Positions 3,356-64,000 of a stretch of DNA of 64,000 nucleotides are shown piece after piece. Each line of letters begins with the position of its first letter. The stretch's first letter is position 1. The notes beneath the pieces are model-generated. The model was not told where the DNA came from, did not search any database, and saw only the letters and a list, made by a program, of their open reading frames with translations. The position numbers and the translations under genes are program-made. The stretch lies in the IMG/VR virus record IMGVR_UViG_2671180724_000008; one strand, given 5' to 3'. This DNA is from a virus. Its lineage: Duplodnaviria > Heunggongvirae > Uroviricota > Caudoviricetes.

Positions 3356-4696
3356 ATGACCGAACTTTGCCATACAGGACGCGGGCTGTCCGAAGAGTTT
3401 GATGAAGATTTCCAGAACAGACTGACGGCATATTTTTGTCGTGATCACGAGTTTCTTACTCGTGCGGGAGATCTGGTTGTGCCTAGCCAATTTGCCAATG
3501 CGGCCAATGCCATATTGGTTAATATGGTTTCGGGCTATTACCGTATGTACAAGAGCGCGCCCTCTTCATCTGCAATTCTGGATATGCTTAAGCGTGCGAA
3601 ACGCGATAAGACTATCCGTGAGGAACTATTCGCCGATGTTGTTGCTGCGTTTAAGCGCATCCTTGCAGAAAAATTGTCCGATACCTCGTACATGGTTGAC
3701 CAGGTATCAACCTTCGCAAAAAGCGTAGCGTTTGATGATGCTCTGATTAAGGCTGCTGAACTGAAAGAGAAGGGCGACTTTCAGGGGGCGATGGCAATCA
3801 TGGCCAAGGTTCAGCAGATTGGATCGAATGAAGCGACCGGAATCTATGACTACTACACCTCCGCAAGTGAGCGATTGAAAGCGCGTGAATATGAGGCTTC
3901 AGAGGAGTATGTACCAAACAGTATTACAACTGGACTCCCTCTTCTCGATAGGTTGCTGTACCAAAAAGGCTGGGCAAAGCGCGAAATGGTGCTCTTCATG
4001 GGGTTCGCTAAATCCGGTAAATCGACCGCAATGGGTGAGTTTTCCATAAACGCAACGCTTGCCGGCTACAATGTTCTGTATCTCTCGCTGGAGGTTCACA
4101 CCAACATTTTGTCCGACCGCTTTGATGCAAGATTGTCGGAGACGGAAATGTCCAAGCTGGTGGAACGGCGCGATGAAGTTCATCGTAAGTTGGCAGAGTT
4201 GGGAGCCACGAAGGGGATTGGTAGTTTGTGGGTTGTTGAGCGTCCGTCAGGAAGTATGTCACCGGCCGATCTGGACCGTATGCTTAACAGTATGAAAGCC
4301 AATGGCATGGTGCCTGACATGGTTGTTGTCGACTACGCAGATTTGATGCGTGCCAGTTATGACCTTCGTGATGATCGCGCCAATATTCGTAGTATCTACA
4401 CCGATTTACGTGCTCTTTATGACAAACATAACGTTGCTGGGATCACGGCATCGCAGACAAACCGTGAAGGTGGCGCGTCAGAAGTTGCCACAATGATGCA
4501 CGCTGCCGACAACATCGAAAAAGTACGTATTGCTGACCTGGTAATAACGATCAACAAAACCGAAGAAGAAGAAGCGAAAGGAGAGGCTCGTCTCTACTTT
4601 GCTGGTTCGCGTAACCAGCAGGGAGGGATCAGCATTCGCGTTAAACAAAACCTCGAACAAATGCGCTTCATTGAGCGAATCTTAGACGTTACCTAA
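3356..4696 (+). CDS. DnaB-family replicative DNA helicase
   Basis: RecA-fold Walker A GFAKSGKST and Walker B-like MVVVDYADLM; conserved AAAGGAAAgCACATG initiation context. Confidence 0.8.
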   Translation: MTELCHTGRGLSEEFDEDFQNRLTAYFCRDHEFLTRAGDLVVPSQFANAANAILVNMVSGYYRMYKSAPSSSAILDMLKRAKRDKTIREELFADVVAAFKRILAEKLSDTSYMVDQVSTFAKSVAFDDALIKAAELKEKGDFQGAMAIMAKVQQIGSNEATGIYDYYTSASERLKAREYEASEEYVPNSITTGLPLLDRLLYQKGWAKREMVLFMGFAKSGKSTAMGEFSINATLAGYNVLYLSLEVHTNILSDRFDARLSETEMSKLVERRDEVHRKLAELGATKGIGSLWVVERPSGSMSPADLDRMLNSMKANGMVPDMVVVDYADLMRASYDLRDDRANIRSIYTDLRALYDKHNVAGITASQTNREGGASEVATMMHAADNIEKVRIADLVITINKTEEEEAKGEARLYFAGSRNQQGGISIRVKQNLEQMRFIERILDVT

Positions 4697-8850: not shown

Positions 8851-9049
8851 GCGGGAGAAGGAAACGCTTCATGAAATCAGTAAGTGGCCGGAGTTCCCTG
8901 AGTACTGGAAGCCTAAAACGCGGGCTAAGTTAGAGCGGTTAGGGTTGGTTGCAAACGTTTCTGAAACGTGGTGTTCGGCCAACTACCAGTTAACTGATAA
9001 AGGGAAAGTATTGCTACAGCAATTAGTAGAATCAGGAGCGTTCAAATGA
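8834..9049 (+). CDS. Small hypothetical protein
   Basis: 71-aa ORF in a chain of overlapping small genes. Confidence 0.4.
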   Translation: MIVLSKREKETLHEISKWPEFPEYWKPKTRAKLERLGLVANVSETWCSANYQLTDKGKVLLQQLVESGAFK

Positions 9050-9198
9050 TTCCATACATCTCATTAGCTTTTATGGGTGGCTTCCTTATTGGCTTCGGCA
9101 TCTGTCGTGATTTAATTAAGCAGGAACTTAAAACCAAAACACTGTGCATCGGAAAGCGTGTGTATCGGGTAGTTCATGAAACAAAGGTGAAAAAATGA
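9046..9198 (+). CDS. Small membrane protein (50 aa; below track cutoff)
   Basis: Hydrophobic helix plus GKRVYRVVHE motif resembling the 8671 ORF. Confidence 0.35.
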   Translation: MIPYISLAFMGGFLIGFGICRDLIKQELKTKTLCIGKRVYRVVHETKVKK

Positions 9199-9997: not shown

Positions 9998-10263
9998 AAG
10001 ACGGGATTGTTGTGTAGGTTTAACCACTGTTGCCATTGGTGCCTGTTTTCACAACAAATGATTCCATACATCACATTGTATAAATTACAAAGTAGGTGCT
10101 GTCCTCAGAAACATCATCTACTTAAAGATTTTGCCTTCTACTATTGAGCGAAGTCGAAAGCGTCTGGCACTAACGAAAAGTGCAAGTAGCGGTGCGTTTC
10201 CTGGCAGAAACTAAACCGTCGCGATTGGCACTGTTGAGTAATAAATACTGGCAGTGCTGAATT

Positions 10264-10339
10264 GATGGTGTAGCTCAGCGGTAGAGCAGTTGGCTGTTAA
10301 CCAACTGGTCGGTGGTTCGAATCCACCCACCATCGCCAA
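10264..10339 (+). tRNA. tRNA-Asn (anticodon GUU)
   Basis: Cloverleaf by hand: acceptor GATGGTG/CACCATC, anticodon stem GTTGG/CCAAC with loop CTGTTAA, T-arm GGTGG-TTCGAAT-CCACC, 3' CCA. Confidence 0.8.
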
Positions 10340-10343
10340 TTTA

Positions 10344-10430
10344 GGGGAGTTAGTCCGTAGAGGTAGCGGTGTAGACTGTAAATCTACTGTCATTGCGACT
10401 CGGGTGGTTCGACTCCATCACTCCCCACCA
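10344..10430 (+). tRNA. tRNA-Tyr (anticodon GUA), long variable arm
   Basis: Acceptor GGGGAGT/ACTCCCC, anticodon stem GTAGA/TCTAC with loop CTGTAAA, T-loop TTCGACT, 3' CCA. Confidence 0.7.
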
Positions 10431-10434
10431 AATT

Positions 10435-10510
10435 GCCGGTTTAGCTCAGTTGGTAGAGCGCCTGCCTTGTAAGCAGGATGTCAGCGGTTCGTGTCCGTTA
10501 ACCGGCACCA
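10435..10510 (+). tRNA. tRNA-Thr (anticodon UGU)
   Basis: Acceptor GCCGGTT/AACCGGC, D-arm GCTC-AGTTGGTA-GAGC, anticodon loop CTTGTAA, T-arm AGCGG-TTCGTGT-CCGTT, 3' CCA. Confidence 0.8.
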
Positions 10511-10518
10511 ACATAATA

Positions 10519-10598
10519 TTGAGAACATTGGCGTAACGGGGTCATATCCCAATCTATGAATAAATGTTACGTTGCCGCGTGACAACCAGTGTTCTCAA
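10519..10598. repeat. Stem-enclosed element (TTGAGAACATTGG / CCAGTGTTCTCAA) with nested CGTAAC/GTTACG stem
   Basis: 13-bp inverted repeat; same CACAnnGTTGAG stem family in inverted orientation. Confidence 0.5.
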
Positions 10599-11178
10599 CA
10601 TTGTGGTGAATGCACAGGCTGATGTGCCGCAACTACAGTAGTGCGCGCTTTGCGGGGCTTGCTACAACCCTGTGTCGGAGATCAGCGCCGACCATCACAA
10701 TTTGGCTCTCTTGCAACAGCATAACGCTGAAATATGTCCAACCTGGTGCGGCCTGTTCACCCGCCGTTAGCTCCACGAAACGGAGCGCACAACAGATAAG
10801 AGAACTTCCCATATGGGGCTTGGCTTAAATGCATCGAGTTCTCTTATCGCTGTGTCACAGACAAATTTCCGACAGCCCTGTTTATCATCGGACGCAACCT
10901 AAAAGGTCGAGGCAAAGCCAGGTAATAGCGGAGGGAGTGACACAGCACACAACAGGTAAGAGCATTTGTAGAGTTCGACTCTCTACCGTGGGCTTTTTCC
11001 CGCGATGCGAGCCATAAATGCTCTTTCCGTTGTGGTGGATTCGCAGACTGATGCGATAGCTTTCTTGGATGTTAGGGAAATGCGGCCGCAAATCTTCCCT
11101 TTCGCGAGCGGTGATCGTCCGTAGTCCTAATTGGCTGCACCGTATGCCGGAGATTCAGTACCGGCCACCACAACGGCC

Positions 11179-11265
11179 GGAGAGTAGGGAGCATGGTGCT
11201 CAAGCGGTCTTGAAAACCGTCCCATTGTGCAAACGATGATGGTTCGATTCCATTACTCTCCGCCA
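11179..11265 (+). tRNA. tRNA-Ser (anticodon UGA), long variable arm
   Basis: Acceptor GGAGAGT/ACTCTCC, anticodon stem-loop GGTCTTGAAAACC as in enterobacterial tRNA-Ser(UGA), T-loop TTCGATT, 3' GCCA; D-arm atypical. Confidence 0.65.
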
Positions 11266-11460: not shown

Positions 11461-12795
11461 TCATGCCAAATTATCCAGATTTCTTTTCTTTTTTTCAATT
11501 ATATTTCTCGCGCCAGAAAAAATTTTACTCAAAATAATTGATTTGCTTGCTCTATTATTAAGATGTAACAACGCGCTATAAAATACATAGTTATCTATTT
11601 TACTATTTAAAGTATTCCCAAGCTTCCCGTTATATGTGCTATTAATAGTATTAAAATATACATGTTCAGGACCTATATTACAAATACCCCTATCAACTCG
11701 CTTTAAATAATGTTTAACTAAAGAAATAGCATCTTCCTTATCATTAATAACATAAAGTCCTGAGCGTTTACCTAGCTTGCTGTCCGAGAATAATTTATAA
11801 CCAACAAGTTCATTTAACGTATTATCCACTTTTGTCAACTCTTTGTTGGCAATCTCCAAATAATACTCAATCTCTTTCTCCATATTACTTATTAAAGAGT
11901 TAAATTCTGCTCGTAACAAATCACCACCAGGTGATTTATAACTCCATAAAATTGAATTGGTAATACGTACTACGTCAGATACTTCTGGTTTCTCTGAATA
12001 GTTTTTGTATCTAGTGCAAATAATGCTGTGCTTTATATATTCTCTAACTAATGATCGATAATCCCTTTCGAAAAGGTTTTTGACATCTAGTCTTCCATTG
12101 CTTGTTGTTATTAAGGTGGTGTTTAAAACTGGGTCGCCTTCAAAAAAATTATATTTATTTAGTAATCGTTTTAGCTTGTGTGAATTATGTGATGTTTCGC
12201 CATAATAATTTATCCCAAAAATAGCAATTATTAGCATAACATCAGGAGTGATGAAATGTCGTAATTGCTCGGCATAAACTTTTTTATCTTCGATTTTCGA
12301 AGATGGAGAGTAAAAACCTTTGTCTATATATTCTAATATTGAAACAATATTACTAACATAACGTATAAAAACTTGATTCATTACAACGGAATCATAAACC
12401 TGATGCAAATAATCTACTCTCAAGTTGTTTTTTATTTTTTCCCCTGTACTAGATGATAACTCTTCTTTTACCTGCCCAAGTAGCTTTTCGTGGTGCTCCA
12501 GCAATGTTTTAAACCATTGTTCAAATGATGATTTTCTTGCCTCAGTTAATGAATCTGATGTTATCTGGACAGCTTTCATAGCTGCTTTCGCACTTTTCTT
12601 TGCTTCATAAGCGTTCCATGCTGAAGCACAAAAAGCTGCCGCCGTGATGCAACTGGTAAAAATAGAAATCCTATCTGCAACATTCAAGCTCCAGAACCAA
12701 TCAGACGATGAAATCAAAACCACAGATATTACGGGAACAATGAAAATCAAAACAGGCATGTATGTACTCGCTCTAATAGTTATTAGTCGAGGCAA
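11461..12795 (-). CDS. AT-rich membrane-anchored protein of unknown function; candidate superinfection-exclusion, abortive-infection or defence gene
   Basis: Gene visibly much more AT-rich than neighbours; two N-terminal TM helices then about 380-aa soluble region; own AT-rich promoter region and terminator; opposite strand. Confidence 0.6.
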   Translation of the reverse strand: MPRLITIRASTYMPVLIFIVPVISVVLISSSDWFWSLNVADRISIFTSCITAAAFCASAWNAYEAKKSAKAAMKAVQITSDSLTEARKSSFEQWFKTLLEHHEKLLGQVKEELSSSTGEKIKNNLRVDYLHQVYDSVVMNQVFIRYVSNIVSILEYIDKGFYSPSSKIEDKKVYAEQLRHFITPDVMLIIAIFGINYYGETSHNSHKLKRLLNKYNFFEGDPVLNTTLITTSNGRLDVKNLFERDYRSLVREYIKHSIICTRYKNYSEKPEVSDVVRITNSILWSYKSPGGDLLRAEFNSLISNMEKEIEYYLEIANKELTKVDNTLNELVGYKLFSDSKLGKRSGLYVINDKEDAISLVKHYLKRVDRGICNIGPEHVYFNTINSTYNGKLGNTLNSKIDNYVFYSALLHLNNRASKSIILSKIFSGARNIIEKKKRNLDNLA

Positions 12796-13187: not shown

Positions 13188-13211
13188 AACGGCTCACAGG
13201 AGCCGTTTTTA
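13188..13211 (+). terminator. Rho-independent terminator (CGGCTC-acag-GAGCCG then TTTTT)
   Basis: Hairpin plus T-run after glutaredoxin stop. Confidence 0.7.
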
Positions 13212-13349
13212 TTCCCACCAAACTCACTCCCGTTTCCCTTAAAATTCAAAAAACAACGTCAAAATGATTCCATACCTACTATGTATGGAATCATTCGTGA
13301 AAATGAGTTACTTTTACTCTTGATCCTATAAGAATCTATGCCTAATATA

Positions 13350-13365
13350 CTGTTTACTTATACAG
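13350..13365. promoter_or_regulatory. LexA (SOS) box CTGTTTACTTATACAG, about 29 bp upstream of the recombinase start
   Basis: Matches CTGT-N8-ACAG with AT-rich spacer. Confidence 0.6.
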
Positions 13366-13393
13366 TGAATCGGCGTAACTCGGTGATTGTCAT

Positions 13394-14497
13394 ATGAAAA
13401 ATAGCTTTGACAGAGCACGCGCTGCGGAGAACACCTCAAAAGAGGCGATTGAGTATCTCGAAAGAGCATCTCAAATGCAGGCCGTTATGATCTCGCAGGT
13501 TAGCAATGACATGAGATTCTCGGACGCATTCATGTTATTCACTCGCTTATCTCTGCTTATAACCAGACGTCGGCCAGAGATCGCTGTTCATTGTATTTTG
13601 ATACATGTTTTGCCGCACATTGCTGATGTAAAAGTAAGTGACATTAATAGGTTCATGGTGAACCAACTGGTAAACCCACTAATACTGGATGGCAAAATTG
13701 TTATGGGCCGCCGCGTTTTCTCTCTGATGAAGCAGTTCCTTAGCTGGTGCGCCTTCCAGGGGATGATAGACGTGTCACCGTTAAACGATATGTCACTAAA
13801 CAAAGTTGCCGGTGGCGCAAAGCCCACACCTCGCGAGCGGAAGCTGACCGACGCAGAGGTATGGGTGTTCTGGAATATATGGGACTACTTCAATGTGTGC
13901 GCTGGTACAAAATGGGCGGCCAGGCTGTGTCTTGTATCAGCAAGACGACCTGACGAAGTACTGCGGGCTAAAAAAAGTGAGTTCAATCTTAAGCGTGGGG
14001 TTTGGAATCAAGGCAAGAGAAACAAGTCAGCACGTGAGCATTCGCTGCCTTTAAGCACATTAATGCGCACATGCATTGAAGAGTTGTTCGAATACGGTAA
14101 AGACAGCCAGTGGCTCGTGCCTTCGAATAAAAAAATCGGGAAAGACCTTCCTATGTCTAAAGTGGCAATAGCCCAGGCATTACGTCGTATTCTGGAACGA
14201 CCAGAACTGATGGAGCTTGAGCCATTTACACCCCGAGATTTGCGCCGTACTGCGCGTAGTTACTTCCCAGCATTAGGCATAAGCCAGGAGGTATCACGCA
14301 AAATCATGAACCACAGTCTTGAGGGGATAGATCGGGTCTACGACCGGCACGATTATATGGACGAGATGCGAGACGCCTTAGAAAGTTTCTCGACGTACAT
14401 CGCATCAATCGTAGAGCAACCGGATTTAGACGAAATTGACCACAAATTCAAGGGAGATCGTCTATCAACAGAGCTTATTCGTGTAAATTTTTCATAG
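13394..14497 (+). CDS. Tyrosine recombinase (phage integrase family); integration versus dimer-resolution role unresolved
   Basis: C-terminal motifs RDLRRTARSY and HSLEG...RVYDRHDY resembling P4-type integrase R/H-x-x-R/Y signature, recalled from memory; no obvious N-terminal arm-binding domain. Confidence 0.65.
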   Translation: MKNSFDRARAAENTSKEAIEYLERASQMQAVMISQVSNDMRFSDAFMLFTRLSLLITRRRPEIAVHCILIHVLPHIADVKVSDINRFMVNQLVNPLILDGKIVMGRRVFSLMKQFLSWCAFQGMIDVSPLNDMSLNKVAGGAKPTPRERKLTDAEVWVFWNIWDYFNVCAGTKWAARLCLVSARRPDEVLRAKKSEFNLKRGVWNQGKRNKSAREHSLPLSTLMRTCIEELFEYGKDSQWLVPSNKKIGKDLPMSKVAIAQALRRILERPELMELEPFTPRDLRRTARSYFPALGISQEVSRKIMNHSLEGIDRVYDRHDYMDEMRDALESFSTYIASIVEQPDLDEIDHKFKGDRLSTELIRVNFS

Positions 14498-14878
14498 AGA
14501 CTTTATGGCCTCAACAACCTTTTGTGATGCGCCTTTCTCTTTACCGAATCGCTCGTTATATGCAGCAAGAACCTGTTTTTCGTCCTCGTTAAGAGGAGCG
14601 GTGCCTTCTTTGTATAAAAATGCTGCGAGTTCAGGTTGGCGTTCTTCCAGCACCATCATCATAAGACGACTTGGCTCAATACCCAGCGCCAGCGCCAGCG
14701 GACGAACCTTATCGATAGGCAAAGGAATTTTGCCACTTTTAATTAAAGAAAGGTTGTTGGCATTTTTATAACCAATAAGTCTGGCTATTTGGGCCTGACT
14801 CATAGGTGAGGATTCAATCAGCCCTGCGATAAAAGCAGCATAGCGACTTTCTATAAATTCAATCTTGTTGTCAGACAT
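14492..14878 (-). CDS. XRE-family helix-turn-helix transcriptional regulator
   Basis: HTH region SQAQIARLIGYKNANNLSLIKSG; divergent from downstream plus-strand genes. Confidence 0.7.
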   Translation of the reverse strand: MSDNKIEFIESRYAAFIAGLIESSPMSQAQIARLIGYKNANNLSLIKSGKIPLPIDKVRPLALALGIEPSRLMMMVLEERQPELAAFLYKEGTAPLNEDEKQVLAAYNERFGKEKGASQKVVEAIKSL

Positions 14879-15129
14879 TGTTACAACCTTTGCGCGTTTA
14901 ATTCTCTCTGGTAAGTGCTTACCGATATTACATCAAAGGTTAGGGTTGTAAAGCTATTATCATTTTTTTCGGCAGGCACTTGTAAGACCGAGCAAAGGTC
15001 CATGCATGGAGAAAAACTAGCCCAAAATAGGTAAGAAAATTAACTTGCATCTGATATAGATGTATTCAGTATTGATACAAATTTTAGTAGTATTCCTTAC
15101 CATAGTATAAGTTAGAATGGATTGATTGA

Positions 15130-19060: not shown

Positions 19061-22000
19061 ATGAAGGCACTGATGGTTCGAACTGACTTCTCACTTGGGG
19101 AGTCGGCTTTAAAAGCGGAAAACGCGGTGAAGATTGCCAGAGAAGCTGGCTACACCGCTGTAATTTCAGCAGATAGCATGAATATTGCGAGTGTTATTCC
19201 ACTACAACGTGCCGCTGGTGACGACATGGCGGTTATTTGTGGTGTGAAACTAAATATCGTTGATGATCCCACATACGAGTACCGGGCTAAACTTGCTAAA
19301 GAGTCTAAGGGATGTATGGAATCATTAGAGCGAGGACGTAACTACTCGTTTACCGCTCTAATTAAAAATGAGCAAGGATATCGCGACATCTGCGAACTAA
19401 TGACGGTGGCCAACACACGAGAACAGTTCTACTTTGTACCGCGTCTCTCGCTCGAACAGTTGGTTTCTACATATGCCAAAGGCAACATCATCCTGCTCAC
19501 TTCCGACATCGGTAGCGTGTTCCAACGCAACGATTTTGCAAAAATCATAAGCACACTGATTACAGCGGGTGGAAAAGACAACTTCTATAGTGTGGTTTAT
19601 CCGCACCCTACCCCATTCTACGACCAGATTAACGTCCGGGCGATGAAAGTCGCCAGCGCATTGAAAATAGAGCCAGTGGCGTTCTATCCCGCTTATTACG
19701 AATCGATCGACGATGCAGACATTAAAGACATTGCGCACATGGTTACGAACAACATCAAAATCGACCAGCCGCATCGTCTGCGTATCCCCCACCAGCGAGA
19801 TAACGCCGTCAATGGTCGCCGCCATCTCCTTGAGGCTCTTAAAGCCTTCTCCGTTCGCATGGATGTGCCGGTAACAGCTGCAATGGCCTCAACAACGCAG
19901 GATACCATTATCGATGCCTGCACATGGCGCTGGCATGAATTGCCGCCAGCACTGCCAAAGATGGCAGACGACGAGCCTGCAACGCTTATGAAACTGGCTG
20001 TTGCAGGGCTGCGTAAACGTCTTACCACAAAAGAGTTTGGCTACACACCACCTGCTTCTGAGAACAGGGTTTATGTTGAGCGGCTAAAGTACGAAATGGA
20101 CACGCTGACTCGCCTGGGATTTTGTGGTTACTTCCTGATGGTACGCGATCTGATGAATCACAGCCGTGAAACTGGCATTCCTGTCGGGCCTGGTCGTGGT
20201 TCCTCCGCTGGATCTCTGGTGGCATGGTGCATAGGCATAACCAACGTCGACCCAATCCGTCACGGTCTTCTGTTTGAACGTTTCATCAACCCTGAGCGTC
20301 TCGACTTGCCGGATGCGGATTTGGACTTCAGCCAGGCACGTCGCCATGAAGTGATCGAGTATTTGAATGAACGCTACGGCGAAGATTACGTTGCGGGTAT
20401 TCCGAACTTCACATATCTGGGCGCAGCCTCTGCACTACGTGACACCGCTCGTATTTATGGTGTGGAGTCCGCAGATATGGCGGTATCAAAAGAACTGAAG
20501 AACGTCGAGGATGATAGCCTTCCATTGGAAGAACTGCGCGAACAACTGGCAAGTCTCGACAAATACGCAACAAAATATCCTGATGCATTCAATGCAGCCT
20601 GCAAGTTACAAAGCCTTATGCGTGGCTTTGGTAGACATGCGGCAGGGATGATCGTAGCAGGTGTTCCTCTGACAGAACGTACACCGGTTGAGCGCCGTGG
20701 TGACGCGCGTTGTATCGCATTTGACAAGCGTTACTGCGAGGCTATGGGCCTAATTAAGCTGGACGTGCTTGGCCTGGCAACTCTCGATTTGCTCGATAGT
20801 GCAAAACGCTACATAAAAGAGAACACAGGTGAAGATATCAATCTTGATGCCATTTCTCTTGAGGATCGCAAGGTGCTGGATGGTTTTGCTGCTGGGTACA
20901 CTCAAGGTGTTTTCCAGCTTGAATCAGGCCCAATGCGCAAGCTGCTTAAAGATTTAGGTGGTGGAATTGAGCCAATGAGCTTTAAAACGGTTGTTGCTAC
21001 GACTGCGCTCTTCCGGCCGGGGCCAATTCAGTCAGGCATGTTGGATGATTATGTTTCTGTCGCCAAAGGCTTTATGACGCCGGAATCATTACACCCCGTT
21101 CTTGATGAACTTACCGCAGAAACAAATGGCGTGATTCTCTATCAGGAACAGACGATGAACGCGACTCGATTGCTTGCTGGCTTCACAATGGCTGAAGCTG
21201 ACGGTGTTCGTAAAGCGATCGGCAAAAAAGACATGGAAAAAATGAAGAGCATGGGCGAGAAGTTCATCGTTCAGGCTCAAGCTGGCTGGATAGACGTTGA
21301 GCTGGAAGATGGCACTACACAGCGCATTCACCGTGCGGAACATTTTAAATGCGAAGACGGAACTCTGAAAACTGTCGAAGAGGCACTTGAGTACGGCGCA
21401 AAACTACCTATAAACGCAGTACGCGTTACAGCGTCACATCCAGGGCTATCAGAGATGAAAGCGAAGGAGATCTGGACCGCATTCGAAAAGAATGGTGCCT
21501 ACCAGTTCAACAAATCACACTCTGTTGCTTACTCCTTAATCAGTTATCAATCTATGTGGTTGAAAACTCATTATCCCGCAGAGTTTTTCGCTGCTGCTCT
21601 CACTATTCTTGGCGAAGATAAACACCAGGGGCTGGTTAAAGATGCGCTGACCTATGGTATTCGCGTATTGCCACCAGACGTTAACGTGTCATCTAACCGA
21701 ATCGAGATCCGCACGCTTGAAGATGGCAGCCAGGTGCTGTATGCGCCCTTCTCTGCTGTGAAAGGTTGTTCTGAGAATGGCTGCCAGGCCATCATGAGAG
21801 CGCGAGAAAAAGTTGGCGGCAAATTCGAGTCACTGGCGCAATTCGAAGAAGCTGTCGAGAAACGTGCCTGTAATAGTCGAGTGCGCGAATCACTGCAAAA
21901 AGTAGGGGCGTTTGCATCCATCGAGCCAGGTAGTCTGCCAGCAACTGATCCAGAGCGTCTCCGCGACCAAGCTGAATTGATGGGAAACCTTGTCATAGAC

Positions 22001-60240: not shown

Positions 60241-60863
60241 GCACGGTAGCGAAAGATCTCACAGAAGATATTCTCAATGAAATTATTGCTGGTGCGAATA
60301 CCTCGCTTGAGCAACTTCTTGCGTTAGCACTGAGAGCCGAACGTCGAGACAGAAATCGTTTTTATGAGCGATTACCAGGGAAACGACCAGATAGATCAGA
60401 TGAAGATGGTTGCGATATAGACTACATGGAGCCTTCAGAGATTTATCAACTTGGTAAAGATGACGGCTGGAACGCTTATCACGATGCTGTGATGAAGTTG
60501 GATGAAAAAGTTAAACCTCTTTCTCGACCGGTAGATCACGGTTTCCGCGATAACTGCGAATGCTCTAGTTGCCAGACCACGGCCCGTATTTGTTCCGAAT
60601 TGACAGATAAATCCAGCCTAATCTACGAAGTTAATGTAGGCGGTAATACATGGGTCGAATGCACAAGAGCTGCATACGTAAGAGCAAAAGACAAGGGTGA
60701 ATTAACCAGAGTTGTTGCCCATCACCCAAATAATGAGCTTAAAGATCACCAAATTCGAGAACTGGTGAACGAGTTGAGGGATATTGCGGTTCAGTACCAC
60801 GGAACGCAGCAATTGCGGGAGAAGATTGCCAGAGCAGTGAACAACTCAGTCCGTAAAAAATAA
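60237..60863 (+). CDS. Hypothetical protein
   Basis: 208-aa ORF; last phage-like gene before the non-coding junction region. Confidence 0.45.
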   Translation: MSTVAKDLTEDILNEIIAGANTSLEQLLALALRAERRDRNRFYERLPGKRPDRSDEDGCDIDYMEPSEIYQLGKDDGWNAYHDAVMKLDEKVKPLSRPVDHGFRDNCECSSCQTTARICSELTDKSSLIYEVNVGGNTWVECTRAAYVRAKDKGELTRVVAHHPNNELKDHQIRELVNELRDIAVQYHGTQQLREKIARAVNNSVRKK

Positions 60864-61076
60864 GCAATAGTACGATAAAGAGGCCCCATGCTCTTGATGG
60901 GGCCTGTAGCAACTAGCGTTATGGACGCTGGTTTACGTACTCAATGATCGCTTTGATAATCGCGAACATCGGCGGCACGATTTTGAACAGTAAGTTAACC
61001 ATAACAGGCCTCACTTAGTTTTATCGCGCCTAGCTGCAAATACCTTTGGGCTTGCCTTTGCAGTTGCAATATCTGT

Positions 61077-61096
61077 AGTCGCCAGATACTTACGGC
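61077..61096. repeat. 20-bp direct repeat AGTCGCCAGATACTTACGGC (copy 1)
   Basis: 19/20 identical copy at 61250-61269; each copy next to a short hairpin. Confidence 0.6.
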
Positions 61097-61249
61097 ACGA
61101 TTTCGAGTTAAGGTAAGGTTTTAGAGTCACCAAAAACCTGGACTTAAATCTTCTTTGAGAACAACGATGTTTAGTAAATGGTCATTATTACCTGGTATGA
61201 CCACTCAACGTTTCTTGATGAATCCAGTACATTCGGTTAATCTTAATTC

Positions 61250-61269
61250 AGTCGCCAGATACTTATGGC
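61250..61269. repeat. 20-bp direct repeat AGTCGCCAGATACTTATGGC (copy 2)
   Basis: See copy 1. Confidence 0.6.
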
Positions 61270-61302
61270 TCAGGAACAGAGCCGCAAACTCTGTTTCCTT
61301 TT

Positions 61303-61333
61303 AAAAAGCCCAGCCTAGTCAACTGGGCTTTTT
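61303..61333. terminator. Bidirectional rho-independent terminator (AAAAAGCCCAG ... CTGGGCTTTTT)
   Basis: 8-bp GC stem flanked by A-run and T-run. Confidence 0.75.
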
Positions 61334-61631
61334 AATGTCTATTTTTAACCCAATGAACCTTCAATACCGCAACATCAGTGTCTTGCGAATTAAGATAGTG
61401 TGTATAGGTTATACATGCAAGTGCATAACTCTGTGGATAACTCAGGAAGGAAAAAGTAGCTTCCGCGCAATTTAGGCCAGACAAGGCTTTCGCAAAAATC
61501 AACGGAGAGAAAAAAATTTGTTAAAAATAACGTTTGTTGGAATTGTATATATTTATGCCTTTCAATAGTTAGCATCTTATTAACATCTTTTTTAAGAGAT
61601 AGAGTTCAAAAATATATAGCTTCAACATATA

Positions 61632-61647
61632 CTGTATGCATATACAG
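61632..61647. promoter_or_regulatory. LexA (SOS) box CTGTATGCATATACAG upstream of the UmuD'-like gene
   Basis: Perfect CTGT-N8-ACAG within TACTGTATGCATATACAGTA, about 20 bp upstream of ATG 61666. Confidence 0.8.
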
Positions 61648-61665
61648 TATTAAGAGGCGAGTATT

Positions 61666-62055
61666 ATGGGCTTCCCTTCTCCTGCGGCGGATTATGCTGA
61701 GAGCCGTATTTCTCTTGATCAGCAGATAATTAGACATCCTTCAGCGACCTACTTCTTGAGGGCAGCTGATAGCCATCATCGTGAGGGAATATTGCAGGGT
61801 GCATTGCTGGTGGTCGATTCCTCACTCACTCCTGTTGATGGATCTCTTCTTGTATGTGCTCTGGATGGGGAATATCGCGTAAAAAGATACCGGAAGTATC
61901 CACGTCAGCATCTGGAGGATTTAAGAACTGGTAAGAAGGAAGCATTGCCAAAGGATGATGATGGATGCACGGGCAGCAATGCCGTGTTTGGTGTGATCAC
62001 TCACATTATCAACGACGCAAGAAGTGGCGAGTTTGATGATTGTCCTGTGATGTAG
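61666..62055 (+). CDS. UmuD'-like protein: UmuD homolog encoded without the N-terminal pro-peptide, starting at the residues that follow the UmuD self-cleavage site
   Basis: Begins MGFPSPAADY, colinear with UmuD after Cys24-Gly25; retains DS and VKR catalytic-region residues; comparable to P1 HumD as recalled. Confidence 0.8.
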   Translation: MGFPSPAADYAESRISLDQQIIRHPSATYFLRAADSHHREGILQGALLVVDSSLTPVDGSLLVCALDGEYRVKRYRKYPRQHLEDLRTGKKEALPKDDDGCTGSNAVFGVITHIINDARSGEFDDCPVM

Positions 62056-62092
62056 GAGAACTGTTTAGGTGGTGCATTGCACCACCTTTTTA

Positions 62093-63193
62093 TCACACTG
62101 CGCGGAATGCGATTTCGCCAGGTATTACTTCACCTTGCCAATACATTTGGGCAGCAACGCGATCTGCGAGGTCACGATAAATAGCCGTAAATTCGCTATC
62201 TGGACGACTAATAACGGTTGGTGTTCCGTTATCCAGATCCTCACGAAGAGAGATATGAAGTGGCATTTGGCCTAACAACTGCGTGTTGTATTTCTCGGCC
62301 AGTTTCTGTGCGCCACCGGTGCCAAAAATTGGCTCGTGATGACCGCAGTTACTGCAAATATGCACACTCATGTTTTCGACGATACCTAGTACCGGCACTT
62401 CGACTTTTTCGAACATCACAATGCCTTTCTTCGCATCGATCAGCGCGATGTCTTGCGGCGTAGTTACCACAACCGCACCAGTTACAGGAATGTTCTGCGC
62501 CAGCGTCAATTGAATATCACCAGTGCCCGGCGGCATATCGAGAACGAGATAGTCCAGATCAGGCCACAGTGTTTCCTGCAACATCTGCATCAGCGCCTTG
62601 CTGGCCATCGGTCCACGCCACACCATTGCATTGTCGTCGGTGACCAGATAACCAATAGAGTTGGTTGCCAGGCCATGAGACATGATAGGTGCCATGTGAG
62701 TACCGTCCGGTGAGGTTGGACGTTGGTTTTCCGCACCCAGCATGGTTGGAATTGATGGACCGTAGATATCGGCATCCAAAATACCAACTTTCGCACCTTC
62801 AGCAGCCAACGCCAGTGCCAAGTTTACTGCTGTGGACGATTTGCCTACACCGCCCTTGCCTGAGCTGACGGCGATGATGTTCTTAACGCCATTAATGCCT
62901 GGTTGGTTTTTGACGCGCTTAAGCGTGGCAATGTTGTACGACAGCTTCCAGTCGATAGCCTTTGCGCCAGTGATACGGAGCAGATCACCACTACATTGCT
63001 CTTTCAGGTCTTCAAAAGGCTTATTCCACACGAAAGGCATGATTAGTTCGACATGCAGTGTGTCATCCATCAACGCAACATGGTGTAACGCTTTAAGCGT
63101 AGTCAGGTTGTGCTTCAGGGTTGGGTGCTGAAAATTAGCCAGCGTACCGGCTACCATTGCTCTCAGGGCATCCGGCGATTTGGACTCGCTCAT
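62093..63193 (-). CDS. apbC: Fe-S cluster carrier ATPase Mrp/ApbC (host chromosomal)
   Basis: Near-identical over most of its length to enterobacterial Mrp as recalled (SGKGGVGKSSTAVNLA, CxxC motif); divergent from metG as in E. coli. Confidence 0.95.
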   Translation of the reverse strand: MSESKSPDALRAMVAGTLANFQHPTLKHNLTTLKALHHVALMDDTLHVELIMPFVWNKPFEDLKEQCSGDLLRITGAKAIDWKLSYNIATLKRVKNQPGINGVKNIIAVSSGKGGVGKSSTAVNLALALAAEGAKVGILDADIYGPSIPTMLGAENQRPTSPDGTHMAPIMSHGLATNSIGYLVTDDNAMVWRGPMASKALMQMLQETLWPDLDYLVLDMPPGTGDIQLTLAQNIPVTGAVVVTTPQDIALIDAKKGIVMFEKVEVPVLGIVENMSVHICSNCGHHEPIFGTGGAQKLAEKYNTQLLGQMPLHISLREDLDNGTPTVISRPDSEFTAIYRDLADRVAAQMYWQGEVIPGEIAFRAV

Positions 63194-63350
63194 CCCGTCT
63201 CCTTTATTTTAATTTGCGCAATTGTCGCCTTGTAGTGTACTCCAGCTACGACATTTAATCATTTATGAGAAATGCTGTTATCACATGGCAGACATAAGGC
63301 CATTTTGTTACTATCAAGCCCCTTTTCACTACAAAGAAGTAATGCCTACT

Positions 63351-64000
63351 ATGACCCAAGTCGCGAAGAAAATTCTGGTGACGTGCGCGCTGCCGTACGC
63401 TAACGGCTCAATCCACCTCGGCCATATGCTGGAGCACATCCAGGCTGATGTCTGGGTTCGTTACCAGCGAATGCGCGGCCACGAGGTTAATTTCATCTGT
63501 GCCGACGATGCCCACGGTACGCCGATCATGCTGAAAGCACAGCAGCTTGGTATCACACCGGAACAGATGATTGGCGAAATGAGCCAGGAACACCAGACTG
63601 ATTTCGCAGGCTTTAACATCAGCTATGACAACTATCACTCGACGCACAGCGAAGAGAACCGCCAGCTGTCTGAGCTTATCTATACTCGCCTGAAAGAGAA
63701 CGGTTTTATTAAAAACCGCACTATCTCTCAGTTGTACGACCCGGAAAAAGGCATGTTCCTGCCGGATCGTTTTGTGAAAGGCACCTGTCCGAAATGTAAA
63801 GCGCCAGATCAATACGGCGATAACTGTGAAGTTTGCGGCGCGACCTACAGCCCGACTGAACTGATTGAGCCGAAATCGGTAGTTTCTGGCGCTACGCCGG
63901 TAATGCGTGATTCTGAACACTTCTTCTTTGATCTGCCCTCTTTCAGCGAAATGTTGCAGGCATGGACCCGCAGCGGTGCGTTGCAGGAGCAGGTGGCAAA
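63351..64000 (+). CDS. metG: Methionyl-tRNA synthetase, 5' partial (runs off window end)
   Basis: N-terminus [35 protein letters not shown] with HIGH-type motif and zinc knuckle CPKC...CEVC, matching E. coli MetG. Confidence 0.95.

Follow-up and report, generated by a model that had tools for sequence, protein, structure and literature searches.

Short recombination sites that lie beside the gene for their own recombinase are known from several systems. In the single-recombinase Xer systems XerS/difSL and XerH/difH, which are chromosomal and coupled to FtsK, the site is located next to the recombinase gene, and the promoter of the integron integrase IntI was reportedly found to be LexA-controlled by Guerin and colleagues in 2009. 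Among phage-plasmids, the Cre/loxP system of P1 serves plasmid multimer resolution, as stated by Pfeifer et al. (PMC7969092). For Cre-type enzymes, target sites were predicted from 13-bp inverted repeats beside the recombinase gene and later validated, and the Pantoea recombinase Panto, which is 41% identical to Cre, has a 13-8-13 rox-like site (PMC4957104). Moreover, LexA-controlled induction modules are described for other phage-plasmids, namely the antirepressor of N15 and the module of GIL01 (PMC11652158). No group of phage-plasmids in Enterobacterales is larger than that of the SSU5-like elements, which carry resistance genes (PMC7969092, PMC9600943), and Pfeifer et al. (PMC7969092) list a tyrosine recombinase just as a persistent gene of the SSU5 supergroup. 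Here we studied such a recombinase gene, int (13394–14497, plus strand), in a stretch of 64,000 nucleotides (the window) of the Caudoviricetes record IMGVR_UViG_2671180724_000008. We found that Int lacks an arm-binding domain, that a 13-7-13 inverted repeat accompanies its gene, and that a conserved LexA box lies at the predicted int promoter, which suggests a plasmid multimer-resolution module under LexA repression.

Pfam, alignment, AlphaFold and Foldseek together identified int as the gene of a 367-residue tyrosine recombinase of the P4-type lineage without an arm-binding domain. Pfam placed the catalytic domain Phage_integrase (PF00589) at residues 172–320 (E 4.7e-10) and gave a weak match to the core-binding domain Phage_int_M at residues 71–133, while no Pfam match to the arm-binding domain (Arm-DNA-bind_3/DUF4102, PF13356) was obtained at E up to 0.1. 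PF22022, weak in this Int, is among the precomputed domains of many family members. A search of 5.8 billion proteins returned a sharply bounded family of about 365 residues (E ≤1e-88) and, beyond a gap, P4-type integrases with PF13356 (E 1e-37 to 1e-20); none of the Int family clusters lists PF13356, whereas the next relatives do. The NCBIfam search of Int gave a weak generic integrase-domain match only and no integron-integrase model. When Int was aligned with a P4-type integrase (26% identity over 335 residues, E 3e-33), Int residue 15 paired with residue 81 of the integrase, indicating that about 65 N-terminal residues are missing. The AlphaFold model of Int (mean predicted local distance difference test score 83) showed an all-helical N-terminal half without a beta-sheet domain, and its best Foldseek matches were lambda Int (full-length and the 75–356 fragment) and Tn1549 Int 82–397, at E of about 1e-6. 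Cre chains ranked 35th or lower (E at least 0.04), IntI structures ranked low, and XerH was among the matches. The first-pass annotation of this DNA had proposed a tyrosine recombinase with a P4-type C-terminal catalytic region and no recognisable arm-binding domain. The first part is borne out by the PF00589 match and by the P4-type integrases with PF13356 as nearest outgroup, and the second by the hidden Markov model check that it had called for, by the alignment from residue 81 and by the helical model. Int is thus a two-domain (core-binding and catalytic) tyrosine recombinase that descended from P4-type integrases and lost the arm-binding domain.

We then compared the catalytic residues in an alignment of 36 family members. 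R185, K211, R281, R284 and Y316 were invariant and H307 was nearly invariant. The position of the first catalytic histidine (His-I) is held across the Int family by the invariant Arg R281 within the motif RDLRR, where the P4-type relatives have HDLRR. A few family members carry Gln at the second His.

Directly upstream of int, a repeat search identified a candidate recombination site, AATGATTCCATAC-CTACTAT-GTATGGAATCATT (13263–13295, 33 bp), in which two perfect 13-nt inverted arms enclose a 7-nt spacer. It lies 98 bp upstream of the int ATG, and is of the kind that the first-pass annotation had suggested looking for nearby, an inverted repeat with a 6–8 bp spacer. Its anatomy is that of a simple tyrosine-recombinase core site, at which Int would exchange strands. 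A 13-7-13 repeat was found 46–253 nt upstream of the matched int region in 62/62 species-level loci from GTDB genomes; 32 of these repeats were perfectly symmetric and the others had one or two asymmetric positions. Three Chimaeribacter loci that first seemed to be without the repeat proved to have it, with slightly asymmetric arms, and were dropped as evidence for integration. In the close clade, 87 loci taken from IMG/VR, GTDB genomes and annotated phages gave 42 distinct palindrome-to-ATG sequences, among which the arms were invariant, the spacer occurred in 7 variants, and the palindrome kept a fixed distance of 22–25 nt from the −35 hexamer of the predicted int promoter. Between clades the arms differed symmetrically, being TGATTCCATAC in SSU5-type clades and TGACTCCAGAC elsewhere, and the clade arm variants ATTCCATAC and ACTCCAGAC showed the same changes in both arms. 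Moreover, in none of the loci examined was the site beside int disrupted.

The AT-rich spacer varies between loci, and some of its forms are exact reverse complements of each other (TTAATAG, 29 times, and CTATTAA, 13 times; TTAACAG and CTGTTAA, once each), indicating that the orientation of the site relative to int is not fixed. We did not use these flips as proof of recombination, given that template switching in quasi-palindromes can flip a spacer and has the same outcome.

The neighbourhood of the site was compared in 64 sequences. The convergent helix-turn-helix (HTH) gene that follows int in the window was present in 10 of them and absent from 54, and cobT, cobS and dnaE were present in 8 and absent from 56. 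The other loci, including those on the Pantoea plasmids pC3_1, pA and pPANA1 and on an Erwinia plasmid, shared no conserved neighbour. Likewise, Pantoea/Rahnella loci, several of them on named megaplasmids, had the repeat and lacked the phage-plasmid flanking genes. These results show that the repeat travels with int and with nothing else. An operator of the neighbouring HTH protein was ruled out, since the palindrome accompanies int in more than 50 loci lacking that gene. We rejected a terminator or plain hairpin: the palindrome is AT-rich without a T-run, grx has a separate terminator at 13188–13207, and beyond the mere pairing of the arms their sequence is kept in relatives with as little as 45% Int identity. 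Stem covariation alone cannot tell a hairpin from a recombinase site. No duplication of the full site in the manner of cassettes was seen in the loci compared or in the complete relative pEC881_2 (109,344 bp). This plasmid has exactly one full site, and int is its only annotated site-specific recombinase. Neither the window nor pEC881_2 showed a detectable cer/dif/psi-like Xer core, which speaks against Xer-dependent dimer resolution there.

In 89 loci, the left flank of the palindrome fell into 28 sequence classes and the right flank into 10, and the divergence began at the outer edge of the left arm, so that the variable left flank marks a cargo hot spot. No locus had two full sites around an insert, and in the phage-plasmid Cyrano the replaced block starts inside grx, for which homologous replacement is the simpler explanation. 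We also observed an A-rich motif (CAGAATTTAAA / TTCAAAAAAC-like) at 13236–13262, with equivalents in the loci L064–L144. It is loosely conserved 8–25 nt to the left of the palindrome and is kept even where the flank further left is unrelated (28 flank classes), and a role as an accessory or bending element is possible.

Between the palindrome and the gene, the LexA (SOS) box TACTGTTTACTTATACAGTG was found at 13348–13367. Within it, the CTGT-N8-ACAG sequence that the first-pass annotation had pointed out upstream of the recombinase gene, CTGTTTACTTATACAG, is present at 13350–13365, 28 nt ahead of the ATG at 13394, and the 20-mer ends 26 nt before that ATG. We scored LexA sites with a position-specific scoring matrix derived from 28 LexA sites of E. 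coli, which themselves score 12–25.5 bits. The box scored 21.2 bits, inside this range. The bare CTGT-N8-ACAG pattern occurs twice in the window where about one occurrence is expected, and is not significant alone; for sites of at least 21 bits, 300 Markov-simulated 64-kb sequences gave an expectation of 0.003 per 64 kb, against 2 observed. The other of these two, TACTGTATGCATATACAGTA (61630–61649, 24.0 bits), lies 16 nt before a humD/umuD-like S24 peptidase gene (61666–62055, plus strand; phrog_811 UmuD-like, Pfam Peptidase_S24), which would be the second SOS target. The third-best LexA-like site in the window scored 15.1 bits, and in the complete 109-kb relative the only two LexA sites above 12 bits were those at humD and int.

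Reading the sequence around the box, we recognized a putative int promoter with a −35 hexamer TTGATC (13320–13325, plus strand), a 17-nt spacer and a −10 hexamer TAATAT (13343–13348, plus strand), followed by a Shine-Dalgarno-like GGTGA (13382–13386, plus strand) 7 nt ahead of the ATG. The −10 hexamer and the LexA 20-mer share one base, at 13348, where the former ends and the latter starts, and bound LexA would therefore cover the predicted transcription start. TTGATC was present in 37 of the 42 distinct close-clade sequences and TAATAT exactly 17 nt further on in 38; in the same set the LexA half-sites were retained (CTGT 39/42, ACAG 42/42) while the N8 between them took 12 forms. In the K. 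oxytoca-complex clade, whose Int is 59% identical, the promoter is a different one (TTGACC...TTAAAT), and again a box, of 22.9 bits, stands directly after the −10 hexamer. These results indicate that the LexA box is real, and its conservation suggests that LexA would bind it and that the SOS response would derepress int. LexA control appears to be a feature of the enteric SSU5/pHCM2/pMT1/Klebsiella lineages, and not of the whole recombinase family.

Two variants of this arrangement were seen. In a Klebsiella-type phage-plasmid (IMG/VR contig L134), a GC-rich insertion about 160 nt upstream of int replaces promoter and LexA box; in this natural variant, int would be freed from LexA control. In the Nissabacter-type phage-plasmid L150/L151, the 3′ end of int contains an 18-bit LexA-like site (3977–3996), some 100 nt away from the gene of the convergent regulator.

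The window belongs to an SSU5-like phage-plasmid, that is, a temperate phage maintained as a plasmid of about 110 kb. The region matched plasmids of this size from E. coli, E. albertii, Klebsiella, Enterobacter, Salmonella and others, as well as the phage-plasmid Cyrano (pLF82), and the gene order grx, int, convergent HTH gene, small open reading frame (ORF), cobT-like, cobS-like and dnaE is that of SSU5-type phage-plasmids. In 5,426 complete E. coli genomes we found 261 matching places, all 261 on plasmids and none on a chromosome. The first-pass annotation had set int about 47 kb from a host junction, on the premise that an integrase had placed the element next to mrp. This premise is wrong. 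Across 60300–64000, which includes apbC (mrp) and metG (62093–64000), 98 E. coli records matched at about 98% identity, and those listed were all plasmids of about 100–117 kb; the apbC-metG pair in 5,802 further records, evidently the chromosomal copies, matched at only 80–90%. The two genes are thus cargo of the phage-plasmid, the window has no host junction, and nothing there suggests integration. A plasmid-borne pair of methionyl-tRNA synthetase (metG) and Fe-S carrier (apbC) is unusual cargo.

Starting from what was observed, namely the domain architecture, a site that accompanies the gene and is present once, a plasmid location in E. coli and a conserved box, we favour, with somewhat better than even confidence, a Cre/loxP-like plasmid multimer-resolution module repressed by LexA. 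Bound to the 20-bp box adjoining the −10 hexamer, host LexA would sit over the predicted transcription start and limit int to low basal expression until DNA damage relieves the repression. A pair of Int monomers would occupy the 13-bp arms of the palindrome, with strand exchange taking place across the 7-bp spacer; in plasmid dimers or multimers, two directly repeated sites would synapse and recombine to give monomers, as Cre/loxP does for P1. We infer Int binding and exchange at the palindrome from the strict co-occurrence and covariation of the site with int, and a reaction between direct repeats on multimers from the single site per replicon together with the finding of the family only on plasmids where the replicon type is known. 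As a speculation on the rationale, more Int would be made when RecA-driven recombination, and hence dimer formation, rises during SOS. In a tblastn search with a Pantoea family member, 927 places were found in 924 PLSDB plasmids, with Klebsiella, Escherichia, Enterobacter, Pantoea, Yersinia, Salmonella and Rahnella among the hosts. Plasmid-only location is shown for E. coli and supported elsewhere. The earlier suggestion of a LexA-controlled, Cre-like recombinase in place of an integrase thus gains from the plasmid-only location in E. coli, the arm-less protein and the 13-7-13 site, and loses its premise of placement at mrp; the roles it assigned stay predictions from sequence.

Published data agree with control by DNA damage in part. 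Cyrano was induced 39-fold by ciprofloxacin (PMC9928086), and mitomycin C induces other SSU5-like elements (PMC9600943). In the expression table for strain LF82, Cyrano int rose from log2 5.6 in LB to 10.3 in macrophages at 6 h, about 26-fold, in parallel to the S24 peptidase/humD homologue, the other gene with a LexA box, which rose from 7.2 to 12.2 (PMC9928086). The parallel rise is consistent with LexA control and not specific to it. In overnight LB cultures of uninduced lysogens, int reads were about 5 times the prophage background (PMC9928086), so int is not silent in lysogens.

Several observations weigh against a LexA-repressed resolution module. Arg at His-I is unusual, so that catalytic activity is an assumption here. 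The predicted int promoter agrees with the consensus at 8 of 12 positions, and a promoter scan with a threshold of 9/12 did not list it; the call rests on conservation across relatives and not on the scan. Upstream of int, neither the Nissabacter and Chimaeribacter clades nor any part of the GACTCCAGAC clade (a large Pantoea/Rahnella/Erwinia/Xenorhabdus clade) have the LexA box, indicating that SOS control is not intrinsic to the job of the recombinase. The macrophage rise is shared with many other Cyrano genes, including several toxin-antitoxin and early genes, and a resolvase induced at lytic induction brings no obvious benefit to a phage whose packaging starts from concatemers. Among the 62 species-level contigs, only 4 are labelled plasmid. 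Finally, the model of resolution leaves three conserved half-sites unexplained. These are exact copies of the 15-mer ATGATTCCATACATC, one palindrome arm plus ATC, at 9046–9060 (plus strand, overlapping the start of a 50-residue ORF), 10058–10072 (plus strand, non-coding, about 200 nt upstream of a tRNA cluster) and 19311–19325 (minus strand, inside the dnaE-like gene). All three point towards int and occupy the same places in relatives despite diverged flanks. In the 109-kb replicon of the relative, no half-site is farther than 6 kb from int. Int might use them as additional binding sites.

The convergent HTH gene (14492–14878, minus strand) bears on a further reading. Its 3′ end overlaps int by 6 nt, and it has a weak Pfam HTH match, is assigned to phrog_8 (transcriptional regulator) and is a putative prophage repressor gene; its homologue in Cyrano is annotated as putative repressor and is expressed in lysogens (PMC9928086). 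In the divergent region between this gene and a 70-residue ORF (14879–15129; phrog_2627) we observed the palindrome GGTAAGTGCTTACC at 14910–14923 and further GGTAAG/CTTACC copies. This switch region thus carries repeats (GGTAAG-N2-CTTACC) that are different from the int palindrome, and they are probably operators of the lysogeny switch. The homologue of the 70-residue ORF rose about 90-fold in macrophages in the LF82 data (PMC9928086).

Given this layout, an int promoter fired by SOS and convergent on the repressor gene might lower the repressor through transcriptional interference or antisense RNA and thereby bring about lytic growth, with the recombinase as a passenger or second output. We regard this as unlikely, though several observations favour it. 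The elements are SOS-inducible, yet the complete 109-kb relative has just two LexA sites above 12 bits, at humD and int; the putative repressor is without an S24 cleavage domain, and of the other annotated regulators one was checked, which is FljA-like. The convergent, 3′-overlapping layout is conserved in phage-plasmid contexts, no strong terminator was found between int and the HTH gene, and the literature that could be searched does not say how SSU5-like elements are induced. On the other hand, phage-plasmids of Xenorhabdus, Morganella, Photorhabdus and Nissabacter keep the convergent layout without a LexA box upstream of int, the LF82 repressor transcript rises with int instead of falling (in data whose strandedness is not known), and the HTH protein is a master repressor by annotation only. 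A joint version, to which we give the same low weight, would make the LexA-gated int promoter of enteric SSU5-like elements the SOS sensor of the lysis-lysogeny switch, which supplies a Cre-like resolvase and at the same time shuts off repressor synthesis by convergent transcription; Int might then dock at the half-sites near early genes. The half-sites also speak for Int as mainly a sequence-specific DNA-binding regulator, with the palindrome as autoregulatory operator and the half-sites as further operators: the replicon has its three conserved, exact 15-mers no farther than 6 kb from int, the palindrome keeps its 22–25 nt from the −35 hexamer, and an integrase-fold repressor in SPbeta-like phages is a precedent (bioRxiv 10.1101/2025.11.27.690993). 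This is improbable: the family keeps its catalytic residues, among them the nucleophile Tyr316, with little or no variation, which is unexpected for a pure DNA binder; moreover, the GACTCCAGAC clade has the palindrome without extra half-sites, and there the orientation of the site and its distance from int vary.

Descent from P4-type integrases would fit a true integrase, for which the palindrome is the attP core and the phage-plasmid integrates and excises under some conditions, and some phage-plasmids are said to switch between integrated and plasmid states (PMC7969092). Integration is nevertheless disfavoured by every test that we ran, and we consider it very improbable: none of the 261 places in E. 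coli was chromosomal, the site stood intact beside int throughout, the protein has no arm-binding domain, no excisionase is annotated in the complete relative, and the supposed host junction turned out to be plasmid cargo. Just as improbable to us is an SOS-triggered, integron-like platform on which Int recombines its site with matching sites on other replicons and swaps the DNA to the left. The 28 left against 10 right flank classes among 89 loci agree with such exchange, as does the integron-like layout of variable cargo, site, LexA-controlled promoter and arm-less recombinase. However, no locus had two full sites bracketing an insert, the replaced segment of Cyrano starts inside the 3′ end of grx, suggesting homologous replacement, and NCBIfam returned a weak generic domain match and no integron-integrase model. 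The least probable of all, to a degree that we would call highly improbable, is that the LexA-like sequence arose by chance or is a relic, and has no regulatory role. The 16-nt pattern is indeed expected about once per window and the box is missing in several clades, but the score of the 20-mer is expected only 0.003 times per window, the position relative to the −10 hexamer is conserved, the half-sites are kept against a variable spacer, and the box is retained across a change of promoter.

Other features of the region were observed in the variable cargo to the left. The tRNA cluster (10264–11265) comprises Asn, Tyr and Thr and, after a gap of 670 nt, Ser, where Cyrano has only Asn, Thr and Ser, close together. 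Between this cluster and grx, an ORF of 444 residues (11461–12795, minus strand) has a weak match to AbiC-like proteins (putative abortive infection); among the 64 sequences compared it was present in this element only.

Taken together, these results give the recombinase a concrete candidate target, the 33-bp 13-7-13 site, a likely regulator, LexA, and a testable function, multimer resolution, and they remove the false lead of an integration next to mrp. The site tied to int is newly found here: the literature that could be searched contained nothing relevant on the site sequences, LexA or resolution in SSU5, pHCM2 and pMT1, did not describe the box, the site or a function of this recombinase, and gave no description of how SSU5-like elements sense DNA damage. 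The family is present in more than 900 sequenced plasmids, including pMT1 of Y. pestis, 49 Salmonella plasmids (likely of the pHCM2 type) and Pantoea megaplasmids. If it is true that the int promoter feeds the lysogeny switch, this would explain how DNA-damaging antibiotics mobilise these elements. Moreover, the natural specificity variants, with ATTCCATAC or ACTCCAGAC arms, are a possible source of recombinase/site pairs, likely orthogonal to those of the loxP type, for genome engineering.

The locus resembles several described systems in part. As in N15 and GIL01, host LexA would act directly on a phage-plasmid promoter, and the element's own repressor is predicted not to be cleaved through RecA; in this element the LexA-controlled gene is a recombinase and not an antirepressor, and a link to induction is hypothetical. 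The P4-type (DUF4102/PF13356) integrases, such as those of CP4-57 and P4, align with this Int over about 335 residues of core-binding and catalytic domains at 26–34% identity and share with it the motifs ...DLRRT... and ...YDRHDY. They differ in that this Int is without the N-terminal arm-binding domain of about 65–80 residues and has Arg at His-I, in that the family is plasmid-borne and not found at tRNA-adjacent island ends, and in that a symmetric palindrome stands beside the gene instead of an attP with arm sites. IntI shares with Int the arm-less architecture, a LexA box over the promoter, which would couple recombination to SOS, and variable cargo beyond a site upstream of the gene, whereas here no NCBIfam integron-integrase model matches, IntI structures rank low in Foldseek and the site is a double-stranded 13-7-13 palindrome; attC-type cassettes or a cassette array were not seen in the compared loci or in the complete relative. 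Like XerS/difSL and XerH/difH, the locus combines one recombinase with one short inverted-repeat site in what may be a self-contained dimer-resolution module; there is no close sequence relationship to them, and this element has no dif/cer/psi-like core. Identity with the published Pantoea Panto/pox pair was ruled out, as Panto is Cre-type with a 13-8-13 site. From Cre itself, Int differs in lineage, being nearest to P4-type integrases and with lambda and Tn1549 Int far above Cre in Foldseek, and further in the spacer, of 7 bp instead of the 8 bp of Cre/loxP, in the Arg at His-I and in the LexA box at its promoter; we know of no LexA regulation of Cre. What the two have in common is the design, namely a phage-plasmid tyrosine recombinase without an arm-binding domain and, near its own gene, a site of 13-bp inverted arms around a short asymmetric spacer.

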